Assembly (NCBI GenBank): GCA_033762835.1
Contig: JANRLG010000123.1
Location: forward strand, 1-26,262
DNA: 26,262 bases
Origin: Thermoanaerobaculia bacterium
GTDB lineage: Bacteria; Acidobacteriota; Thermoanaerobaculia; Multivoradales; DATKCC01
Reading direction: 5' to 3'
Positions 23,119 through 26,100 of this stretch are shown here, one piece after another; positions within the stretch are counted from its first letter, which is position 1; every line of letters begins with the position of its first letter. The notes beneath the pieces were generated by a model that did no database searches, was not told the DNA's origin, and worked only from the letters and a program-made list of their open reading frames with translations. Both the position numbers and the translations under genes were made by a program.

Positions 23119-23146
23119 AAAAAAAAGCCCGGCGCGTGGGCCGGGC
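23119..23146 (-). terminator. rho-independent terminator of the RHS gene
   Basis: On the minus strand: GC stem gcccggc (23127-23133 on plus) / gccgggc (23140-23146), 6-nt loop, immediately followed by U8 (plus-strand A8 at 23119-23126). Sits 27 nt downstream of the RHS stop (23173-23175). Confidence 0.65.
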
Positions 23147-23172
23147 TCCGAGCTGTCGCAGCCGGGCGTTCT

Positions 23173-26100
23173 CTAGCCCGAGGGGCGTTCCTCGGGTTCC
23201 TCTTGTTCAGCCCCTTCCTCCAATTCGCGCAGGCGGCGCCGAATCTCCTCGAGTTCGGCTCGGAGCTTTTCGAGCCTGTCCTTGTAGTAGGCCTCGAGTG
23301 CGTAGCGTTCGTCGACCGTTTGGGCACTGACGATCCGCCGAGTTACGAGGGACAGTTCCGTCCCGACCTGTTGCAGCTGACTTTCGAGTTTTACGACCTC
23401 GTGCCCGCGCCAGAGACCTTCGACGAAGGTGCCGATGGTGCCCCACAGAATCCTGGTGGTGGGAAATGCACCCGGTCCCGCCTCTTGCAGCATTTCCATC
23501 CGGAATTCTTTGTTCGCGACCGCCACAGGATGAATGATGACCGCATCGACGGCGCCCAAGGCGACGGTGCCCACCACGGCGGCGAGCCCGGCGCCAGCGG
23601 TCTCCACAGCATGACCAAGCGGGCTGTAGGCCTCGAGCCAGACCCACCAACCCGCGGGACCCATGCTCGTCACCTCCTCGGGTGCCTTCCCTGCGCGGCC
23701 ATCCGGGTCCACCAGGGTCAACGGGTTACCCTGCACGTAGGAGTAGAGGTTCCAGCTCTTCGGATTCGCGGGCGAAGCTCCCGCCGGATCGGTGCTCAGG
23801 AACCGCCCCAGCCACGGGCTGTAGTACCGGGCATGCATGTAGTCGAGATCGTCGCGCAGGCCGACTTGAGCGGCGCAGCTGGCCGCGGCGCAGCCGTAGT
23901 CGCGTTCATGGCCGGTGAACCGGAGCGGCTCGGGGCCATCGACGTTGTCGGCGGCGACCTCGCCGTAGGGCCAGTGCTTCATCTCGTCGCCGATCGGAAG
24001 CCCGGTCACGCCGTCGGTGATGCGGCGTGTGCTGCCCAGGTGGTCGAGGTGATAGTGCTGCACCTTCTGACCCGTGCCCTGGGGCAGGACCGCGGCGAAC
24101 AGACTTCCGGCACGGAAGATCTGGTCGCGTTTCCAGGACCATGGACCCGTGCGATCCGTGGTCGTCGCGGCCTGGCGTAGCAACTTGTTGTCCGGGCCGC
24201 GCAAGCTCCAGATCTCCTCGCCGGTCATGTAGTCGCGGACCATCACCCGCTCATCGTCGACGGTGTACAGCATGTCGCGGAAGACGCCCGGGCCCGTTTC
24301 TCCGCTCAGTTGGTTGAAACTGTCGAACCAGCGAGTGGTGTCGAAATAGCCGGTCAAGTTGCCGTTTTGGTCGTAGTCGATCCACTCGTTGTTGGAGGGG
24401 GTCAGCCGGTTCGAGAGCGGGTCGGGTTTGAGCACCCGGCTTCCGAGCTGGGTCAGGTTCCCGAACAGGTCGTATTGGTACGCCTGACTGCCAAGTCCCG
24501 CGAGTTGGGCGAAGACCAGCTGGGAGGACGGGTCGTAGCGGAAGGTGTCCGCCCCCGCGGCCGTGACATTGCCGGCGGTATCGAAGCTGAGGGTACCCGT
24601 CGTGAAGAAGGTGTTGCTATTTCGTTCGGAACGCAGGCTTCCCACGAGCGGCATGAAGGCATCGTGGAGGGTCAGGAAGTCGGCGGTTCCGTTGGCATGG
24701 ACGGCCTTGCTCCACAGGCCGTTCGGGAAGTACTCGATGGCGGAGGCGAAGGGCTGGGCCCCGGTTCCCGTCTGCTCGATGCGGGTGGGTAGTCCGAAGC
24801 CATAGGTGGTGCGGACCTTCCTCGGCGGCAGCGCGGCGGCGCAGGCCGCGGGGTAGATGCAGGTCGGGTACTCGATGTCGCTGGGGTTGCCCAGAGCGTC
24901 GTAGGTCACCTGGTTGCGGAACACCGTGCCGTCGCTGGAACGCGTTTCGCGAGTCGTCAGCCGGCCCGCAACATCCCAATAACCAAGGATTTCGGTGACC
25001 ACGACGCCGAGCCCCGACTCGCCCCGCAAGCCGTAGATCGGATTCCACCGCTTCGCCATCACCAGCTTGCCTGCGCGATAGTCGGTTTGAGCCCCTTCGG
25101 TGCGGTTCTCGGTGGCGTAGAAATACTCCTTGACCGGCTTGCCGGTGCTGCGGTCGATGACCTGCGTCGGTCGCCCGGCGCGGTCGTAGTTGAAATCGAG
25201 GTCGAAAGCGGCGGGGCCCGCTGGATCGGTTTCCTCGAAGCGCCGGGTACCGAGGTTGCCCAGGGCGTCATAACGCTCGAACTTGACCGTGGCGTGGTCG
25301 GTGGTGCCGAGCTCGGGCAGCTCCTGCCACTTGACGAATCCCCTCTGGTCGTAACCAAAGCGCCGCTCTTGAGGTCCCGTGTAGCCGGCCGGGCAGTTTT
25401 CGCGGCAACTTTGGGTCGTCTTGGTCAGGTGACCGCCGACGTCGTACTGGTAGATCGTCTGGCGAACCGCATGGCCCGGAATCGCGGACTCGTTCTCCAC
25501 CACCCGCGCCAGGTTCCCACGCCGGTCGGTCAGGAACTTCGTGTGGACCTCCGGATTTCCCGCAGCGCCCGTCTCGATGTAGGCCCTGACGACCTTCGTC
25601 TGCTCGCCATAAAGCGTGAAGCGGGTGCTCTTGCCGTCCGGAGCGATCACTTCTCCAGGTTTGCCGAAAGGGTCGTAGAACTTGAAGCGCGTCCAGCCGC
25701 TGTCCGAAGCAACGCTCGGACAAGCCGCGGCGAAGGCGGACTGGCGCTTGACCTGGCTGTTGGGCAGGTACTCGATACAGCGCTCAGCATCCTGGAAACC
25801 CGAGGTATTGACGGCCGGCAGACGTTGCAGCTCGCGCTCCAAGCGCCCGAAGCGATCGAAGAAGTACTCGCCGCGTTGCAGCAGCGTGCCTCCGCTCTTG
25901 GCCTCCCGAACCGTGTGGCGCCCCGGGGTGTCGAACTGGGTCGTCGTGACGAGGCCGCTGGGTTCGGTCACCGAGACGATGCGGCTTCGATCGTCCAAGG
26001 TCAGGCTCGTGGCACGGCCGGCGGCATCCCGAGACACCGTCGTATTGCCGAGACGATCGACCTCCGTATCGGCCAGCGGGAAGAACCGGGTTCCGCCCTT

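Follow-up and report, generated by a model that had tools for sequence, protein, structure and literature searches.

A putative membrane-directed cargo domain lacking an adjoining immunity gene in an RHS protein of a Thermoanaerobaculia bacterium

The stretch of DNA analysed here (26,262 nt, referred to below as the window) comes from a Thermoanaerobaculia bacterium of the phylum Acidobacteriota and ends inside the gene of a large RHS/YD-repeat protein, whose last 174 amino acids (aa) form an orphan C-terminal tail with no immunity gene beside it. Judged by its sequence, the gene is an RHS/YD-repeat polymorphic toxin, as shell repeats, a DPxG core and a variable C-terminus are all present. We propose that the tail is a polymorphic RHS cargo which would insert into and depolarise membranes, and that an immunity gene is absent because the target is not kin or because protection is encoded elsewhere; we regard this reading as evenly poised between right and wrong. 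The original prediction, made from the letters alone, had left three options for the tail, namely a membrane-acting toxin with its immunity encoded elsewhere, a non-toxic domain, and an immunity gene lost or too small to recognise. The data favour the first of these, with the toxicity itself being putative.

The RHS shell, its core and the orphan tail

The RHS gene lies on the minus strand, where an open reading frame (ORF) at 23173-26262 stays open to the end of the window with no stop codon upstream in the translation. The matching record is a 1029-aa partial RHS protein from a Thermoanaerobaculia metagenome-assembled genome (MAG), and the 5' end of the gene is cut by the contig end; exact-protein look-ups of the RHS protein and of the neighbouring S9 peptidase gave no record. 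About 745 N-terminal residues are estimated to lie off the contig, as measured against the 1770-aa homologue P0003. The visible shell comprises its C-terminal 855 aa (23698-26262, minus strand) and is recognised by a stop-free translation, by matches to RHS_repeat (PF05593, E=3e-15 in Pfam) and TIGR01643 (E=1.9e-6 in NCBIfam), and by 62% aa identity to residues 756-1603 of P0003. Altogether, 77 RHS homologues of the window protein were found at E<=1e-10.

At the end of the shell, the RHS-associated core (aa 765-855; 23698-23970, minus strand) finishes with ...NPLTLVDPDG. It matches Rhs_assc_core (TIGR03696) with 63.4 bits, the cutoff being 32.5, over profile positions 3-75 of 76, and the match ends at ...LVDPDG (aa 855). 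The canonical RHS cleavage region had been placed at ...LVDPDGR, which is exactly where this above-cutoff match stops. We infer that the bond between DPDG and the following arginine is the predicted aspartyl autoproteolysis site that would free the tail. The best matches of the core in PDB sequence searches are the TcC subunits TccC3 and YenC2, and these are its only PDB matches.

Beyond the core lies the variable C-terminal cargo domain, a putative toxin of 174 aa (R856-G1029; 23176-23697, minus strand), followed by the stop codon TAG at 23173-23175; its measured length agrees with the approximately 175 residues first proposed. An exhaustive phmmer search of the tail against 1.84 billion cluster representatives returned only the parent protein and a spurious repeat protein, P0002. 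Pfam and NCBIfam at E<=0.1 gave nothing but coiled-coil noise, and none of the PDB chains was matched by sequence. The early impression that the tail carries no nuclease, deaminase or ADP-ribosyltransferase motif is thereby borne out, as the toxin families of Pfam and NCBIfam stay unmatched at this threshold. Word-indexed homologue searches with the tails of the window protein and of P0003 were also empty, and they are uninformative, having missed even the parent proteins; the valid negative for relatives of the tail is the exhaustive phmmer search. Such a word-indexed search misses the parent when the query is a tail of about 170 aa from a long protein, and its negatives for short subsequences are untrustworthy.

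The tail is composed of several distinct segments, all on the minus strand. A Trp-rich interfacial or amphipathic segment, AGWWVWLEAYSPLGHA, including GWWVWLEAY, occupies tail aa 15-30 (23608-23655), with a Wimley-White 13-residue minimum of -5.29 kcal/mol that is reached by 4.5% of shuffles. It is followed by a hydrophobic Gly/Ala helix with a small-xxx-small, glycine-zipper-like pattern, VETAGAGLAAVVGTVALGAVDAVIIHPVAVAN, at tail aa 31-62 (23512-23607). Its maximum Kyte-Doolittle average over 19 residues (KD19) is 2.17, at GLAAVVGTVALGAVDAVII, a value reached by 1.2% of composition shuffles; KD19 exceeds 1.6 in the tail windows starting at aa 34-43, while the shell maximum is 0.97. This is the only segment of transmembrane (TM) grade in the tail, and AlphaFold2 (AF2) models it as helical with low confidence, so that the glycine-zipper-like stretch first noticed by eye is recovered by measurement. 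A second amphipathic Trp/Gly segment, GAFPTTRILWGTIGTFVEGLWRGH, at tail aa 76-98 (23404-23472), was recognised by direct reading of the sequence, and AF2 likewise models it as a helix. For the charged C-terminal part (tail aa ~79-165; 23203-23463), the prediction is a hairpin of antiparallel helices, or coiled coil, with a predicted local distance difference test (pLDDT) score of 85-97, before the acidic end EEPEERPSG. The model, which is helical throughout, agrees with the coiled coil expected at this end.

A recombination relic or filler, which would need no immunity at all, is an alternative description of the tail that we consider improbable. Among about 15 billion proteins the tail stands alone, it has neither a catalytic motif nor an immunity gene, and its GC content at third codon positions (GC3) is 0.73, as compared with 0.84 in the shell, all of which would suit a non-toxic or decayed sequence. 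A GC3 lower in the tail than in the shell was found in all three close loci compared. However, the reading frame is uninterrupted, and GC values of 0.73/0.46/0.73 at the three codon positions identify the annotated frame as coding, whereas the other frames are Arg-rich nonsense. The ordered amphipathic and hydrophobic architecture with its high-confidence hairpin also speaks against decay, as do the intact cleavage motif of the core and a length typical of the clade, in which most other tails lack annotation too.

Allele exchange at the locus and the absence of an immunity gene

The nearest RHS homologue is P0003, encoded at locus L001, which is 62% identical across window residues 1-855 (83% coverage). 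The alignment stops at DPxG, and the 167-aa tail of P0003 is unrelated to that of the window protein. The same holds more widely, since the 64 tails of the clade are almost all mutually unrelated; their length is 156-220 aa, of which 174 aa is typical. Several carry known toxin domains (ribonuclease, HNH, Tox-REase-7), and most have no family annotation. The suggestion that the tail is variable rather than a conserved part of the shell is upheld by this comparison, which shows that the tail is a replaceable module.

The DNA of the two loci places the limits of the exchange. From 23151 onward, that is from the 5' foot of the terminator, 22 nt past the stop codon, the window is 91.9% identical to L001. 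In the RHS shell, DNA identity falls to 70%, and protein identity is even, at 0.44-0.76 per 50 aa, near-identical blocks being absent. Given a flank that is 92% and a shell that is 70% identical, the RHS gene, as far as it is visible, constitutes a divergent allele within conserved surroundings. The alignment shows the 3' exchange point to lie between the stop codon and the terminator, so that the exchanged segment ends within 22 nt of the stop.

This 3' limit coincides with an intrinsic terminator (23119-23149, minus strand) of a 10-bp stem, a 6-nt loop and T8, in which the GC-rich hairpin spans 23149-23124 and the T8 tract 23126-23119. The original prediction was right about a hairpin with a U8 tract after the stop, and the distance needs correction, as the hairpin begins 23 nt, not 27 nt, past the stop codon. 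Downstream lies a gene for a secreted S9/DPP-IV-type peptidase (20658-22793, minus strand; DPPIV_N E=5e-88, Peptidase_S9 E=2.5e-45), which served as the orthology anchor, being 95% identical in aa to its counterpart in L001 and 79% to that in a third locus, L086. It had been described as divergent from the RHS gene; in fact it is on the same strand.

Locus L086 contains neither an RHS gene nor the cadherin-like gene that precedes it in L001. It keeps an outer-membrane protein, the terminator, the spacer, the S9 gene and the syntenic downstream genes, including a CHAT-domain gene. The outer-membrane protein of 965 aa is 86% identical to the one upstream of the cadherin-RHS pair in L001, and it is followed by ~330 nt and then the terminator. 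Because both flanks are kept without the pair, the cadherin and RHS genes form a presence/absence cassette. Scanning the contigs of genomes and metagenomes with the RHS sequence gave nothing, and in S9-based scans the GTDB representatives were all <=58% identical and non-syntenic, with L086 (79%) as the only useful locus. Two alleles and an empty site thus make a clean natural case of RHS allele replacement, with the 3' breakpoint at the terminator and no immunity gene carried along, which bears on how frequently RHS toxins are aimed at non-kin. Just upstream of the terminator of L086, at 9123-9455, there is also a start-less ORF remnant ending in FDADELDRELIEAIAKGEFRDDRA; it may be a relic of a deleted gene, in which case the site in L086 could have been emptied by deletion instead of preserving the ancestral condition.

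The junction between shell and tail could, in principle, be a chimera produced in assembling the MAG, an explanation that we find barely credible. RHS genes commonly break assemblies, this contig ends inside one, and the tail is unique. On the other side, the frame is continuous across the junction, the tail begins exactly at the DPxG boundary, and the terminator, the spacer and the S9 gene are reproduced in an independent Logan assembly.

No immunity gene adjoins the tail, either in the window or in the L001 allele. In agreement with the original prediction, there are only 23 nt between the stop codon and the hairpin, and the spacer beyond is compositionally non-coding. The L001 allele, known from an independent assembly, has the same layout and is likewise without an adjacent immunity gene, which answers the earlier suggestion that related RHS loci be compared. 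The spacer between the RHS and S9 genes (22794-23172, 379 nt) has GC1/2/3 of 0.70/0.70/0.68 and no codon periodicity, as compared with 0.67/0.48/0.87 in the S9 gene. A search of both strands of this spacer for small TM ORFs, as the original prediction had proposed, revealed no hydrophobic one, the highest KD19 being 1.10. Two out-of-frame ORFs of 83 and 147 aa, which overlap the tail, are Arg-rich and were discarded as immunity candidates; the 83-aa ORF also spans the terminator.

The spacer had been described as having no convincing ORF, merely an Arg/Pro-rich frame of 64 aa. The absence of coding periodicity supports this description, which nevertheless overlooked a conserved ATG-initiated small ORF of 33 aa inside that frame (MTLHTSPGASIDPAG...FDGLIDIALPLA; 22882-22983, minus strand), with a Shine-Dalgarno-like GAGGGA upstream. 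The L001 copy, also of 33 aa, is set apart by one change that is non-synonymous, two that are synonymous and an 18-nt patch. The L086 copy has 60 aa and shares (S/T)IDPAG and DGLIDIA; its length differences, of 45 and 15 nt, preserve the frame. The product is not hydrophobic (maximum KD19 0.36) and has no Pfam match. A conserved small ORF accompanying the tail family would have spoken for a missed immunity gene; a conserved ORF does exist, independently of the tail. The small ORF and a nearby hairpin belong with the S9 gene, because they are found beside an unrelated tail in L001 and without any RHS gene in L086.

It is therefore very doubtful that the spacer holds the immunity gene after all, be it this 33-aa ORF or the 64-aa frame with its GTG start. 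In favour of the idea, both L001 and L086 keep the ORF open, its length changes are in frame, its IDPAG and DGLIDIA motifs are retained, and the 18-nt patch (22938-22921) has 10 differences between the RHS alleles. Nevertheless, the ORF sits past the RHS terminator, it is near-identical beside the unrelated tail of L001, a longer form occurs in the RHS-less L086, and neither its hydrophobicity nor its composition is that of such a gene. The patch itself (22921-22938, minus strand) changes ARQRPA in the window to SPPRLC in L001 by 10 substitutions, in the midst of ~140 nt that are nearly identical, a case of local hypervariability.

Elsewhere in the clade, the picture is mixed. P0004 has a 182-aa ORF 85 nt downstream. 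P0009 and P0020, whose tails are related (62% over 82 aa), are each followed by an uncalled ORF of ~105 aa, and the two ORFs are mutually homologous. Behind P0016, P0024 and P0037 lie ORFs of 120, 143 and 217 aa, respectively, and for P0016 and P0024 orphan RHS fragments come next. For P0032, no immunity ORF was found, and a sulfatase gene of convergent orientation begins 167 nt downstream. Thus, three of nine loci are without a candidate immunity gene, two of them being both alleles of the window locus, and the absence is real and unusual, without being unique. The ~105-aa ORFs (L004 10977-11291 and L005 11139-11471) likely constitute an unannotated immunity family.

Possible mode of action and comparison with known toxins

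How the protein is delivered can be approached through its relatives. P0003 and P0004 start, as judged by eye, with signal-peptide-like sequences, and a gene for a cadherin/Big_9 tandem-repeat, adhesin-like protein of 846-881 aa lies 2-15 nt upstream of the RHS gene (L001 6318-8858, L002 4085-6730). The N-terminal region of ~750 aa in the RHS homologues has no family match, and no genes for a type VI secretion system (T6SS), PAAR, VgrG, TcA or TcB were found in the window. In distant clade members (L131-L134), an ORF of 225-254 aa (in L134, one of 44 aa) overlaps the RHS start in place of the cadherin gene; this ORF and the cadherin gene may be alternative delivery partners.

In the mechanism we propose, the aspartyl protease of the core would cut after DPxG, and the tail of ~19 kDa would stay in the shell until delivery, as in the established biology of Tc and T6SS Rhs proteins. 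After export, it would act at the membrane of the target cell. The Trp-rich amphipathic helices might dock at the membrane interface, and the Gly/Ala-zipper helix would then insert and oligomerise, causing depolarisation or permeabilisation in the manner of Tse5. The helical hairpin could serve as an oligomerisation or solubility element.

Tse5 is the closest precedent. Its C-terminal toxin (Tse5-CT) is Rhs-encapsulated, contains TM and amphipathic helices, has a function not predictable from sequence, enters lipid monolayers spontaneously and causes cells to depolarise (PMC9637101). The window protein resembles it in the RHS shell with a core cleavage motif, a tail of ~150-175 aa without an enzymatic signature, and predicted TM and amphipathic helices. 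No sequence similarity between the two is detectable, and PDB searches with the tail (E<=10) or with the entire window protein miss Tse5, although the deposited chains may not include the toxin domain. Tse5 also has a PAAR-like N-terminus, delivery through VgrG and the T6SS, and an adjacent immunity protein with two TM helices, Tsi5. The homologues of the window protein instead have signal-peptide-like N-termini and an upstream cadherin-like gene, and no Tsi5-like hydrophobic ORF occurs in 22794-23172. The AF2 model of the tail is too poor for its fold to be compared with that of Tse5-CT.

Glycine-zipper toxins that depolarise or permeabilise membranes are known (PMC12744356, PMC10240207, PMC11630599), the effect being depolarisation in EsxX and the ionophores of contact-dependent inhibition (CDI) and permeabilisation by the N-terminus of Tde1. 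The tail shares with EsxX-CT, EC93-type CDI ionophores, CdzC/D, the Tde1 N-terminus and Tox-WTIP a small-xxx-small ladder, a hydrophobic helix and amphipathic surroundings, and by this likeness a depolarising or permeabilising role is plausible. In contrast, there is no sequence relationship, and those toxins have cognate immunity proteins, mostly membrane proteins. Tox-WTIP, with two TM helices and the motifs RxxR and W-x-[ST]-I-P (PMC3482391), was considered as the identity of the tail and rejected: the tail has WGTIG, its hydrophobic helix holds no Arg or RxxR, and Pfam is unmatched at E<=0.1.

The hydrophobic helix could also have a more limited role. According to this explanation, which we hold to be unlikely, the Gly/Ala helix would be only an entry or translocation module and the hairpin a non-enzymatic effector that binds or sequesters an intracellular target, with no pore being formed. 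The glycine zipper of Tde1 is required for translocation and not for its DNase action (PMC10240207), hydrophobic helices recur among the clade tails, and the hairpin is the sole confidently folded part of the model. Conversely, an acidic coiled-coil hairpin of ~70 aa is without precedent here as a stand-alone toxin, and there are no homologues in which a conserved surface could be seen.

Several observations weigh against the membrane-toxin reading itself. The toxicity and membrane action of the tail are predicted from helices and analogy. The tail is a singleton, so that neither conservation nor selection can be called upon. Its first 100 aa have pLDDT <50 in the AF2 model, and its single TM-grade segment has Asp and His inside. 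A comparably hydrophobic helix is present in 19 of 56 clade tails, one of which, P0033, carries a Tox-REase-7 nuclease domain. The depolarising toxins Tse5, the CDI ionophores and EsxX all have adjacent membrane immunity proteins, and the clade is not generally immunity-free, with an ORF directly after the RHS gene in six of nine loci. Moreover, all evidence on delivery comes from relatives, the 5' part of the window RHS gene and the gene upstream of it being off the contig.

If the tail is a membrane toxin, the likeliest reason for the missing immunity gene is either a non-kin target, be it a eukaryote or a bacterium without close relationship, or protection by an unlinked gene. A non-kin target is favoured because both alleles are immunity-free and were exchanged without an immunity gene, because the P0003 tail weakly resembles a host-directed effector protease, and because in PDB sequence searches the core matches none but TcC subunits, which are anti-eukaryotic. 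The P0003 tail has a HELSH (HExxH) motif and a weak, sub-threshold match to Peptidase_M91 (NleD-like effector, E=0.0024). In PDB sequence searches this tail had no match, and its AF2 model, with a mean pLDDT of 45, is too poor to use; since neither is of help, its metalloprotease assignment stands on HELSH and the sub-threshold match. Toxins used on hosts rather than on conspecifics often lack immunity genes (PMC3482391).

Two further systems are instructive in this context. The TcC proteins TccC3 and YenC2 likewise have an RHS cocoon, an aspartyl-protease core, a hypervariable C-terminal cargo and no immunity gene. TcC proteins do without the latter because their targets are eukaryotic, and their cargos are usually enzymes, for instance ADP-ribosyltransferases. 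They differ in that no TcA or TcB is found in the window or in L001, where the upstream partner is the 846-aa cadherin/Big_9 protein, and in that the PDB match is confined to the core motif of ~50 aa. The RHS/WapA-type toxin-immunity modules (PMC3482391) are alike in their conserved shell, DPxG boundary and diverse tail of differing GC3, and clade relatives have toxin-immunity pairs and downstream orphan RHS fragments. In the window locus, by contrast, neither allele has an immunity ORF, and the shell has diverged too (62% aa identity versus 95% in the flank).

A broader and rather unlikely possibility is that the locus represents an immunity-independent RHS system, in which a Sec-exported cocoon would act together with a cadherin/Ig adhesin, whole alleles of shell and tail would be swapped with no immunity gene, the targets both of this tail and of the NleD-like metalloprotease tail in the sister allele would be non-kin such as protists or unrelated bacteria, and the tail would found a new family of RHS-delivered membrane toxins. 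If the tail is toxic, it would be a new non-enzymatic, membrane-directed RHS cargo from the little-studied Thermoanaerobaculia of the Acidobacteriota. The advance is incremental, since orphan tails of RHS proteins, and the occasional locus without immunity, are familiar from earlier work.

Spacer hairpins and other genes of the window

The spacer contains a long conserved hairpin (23009-23067, minus strand) that lies outside the RHS module. It is identical in L001, the changes in L086 keep the pairing, and the folding energy comes to about -47 kcal/mol for each of the three loci. Rfam gave only chance miRNA-like matches to the spacer and no family for the hairpin, and the folding of the whole spacer is not better than that of shuffles (z=-0.96). 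In addition, a mini-hairpin at 22992-23005 (minus strand) would sequester the GAGGGA element, pairing TCCCTC with GAGGGA in the window and CTTTC with GAAAG in L086. The hairpin, the mini-hairpin and the 33-aa ORF may together represent a translationally controlled small protein or a leader peptide of the S9 gene.

The remaining genes of the window encode an MMPL transporter, an M14 carboxypeptidase, an alcohol dehydrogenase, a methyltransferase DNA-binding protein and an SPFH protein. Two tandem paralogous genes for Ser/Thr protein kinases with long TPR regions lie at 6998-9712 and 9726-12401 on the plus strand. On the minus strand, 15937-20565 holds a CHAT-domain protease gene (18802-20565) followed by ORFs of 265, 362 and 322 aa without a Pfam match. 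This block is syntenic in L086, where three of the four genes share about 45% aa identity and the 322-aa ORF is matched over only a 74-aa stretch, at 80%.

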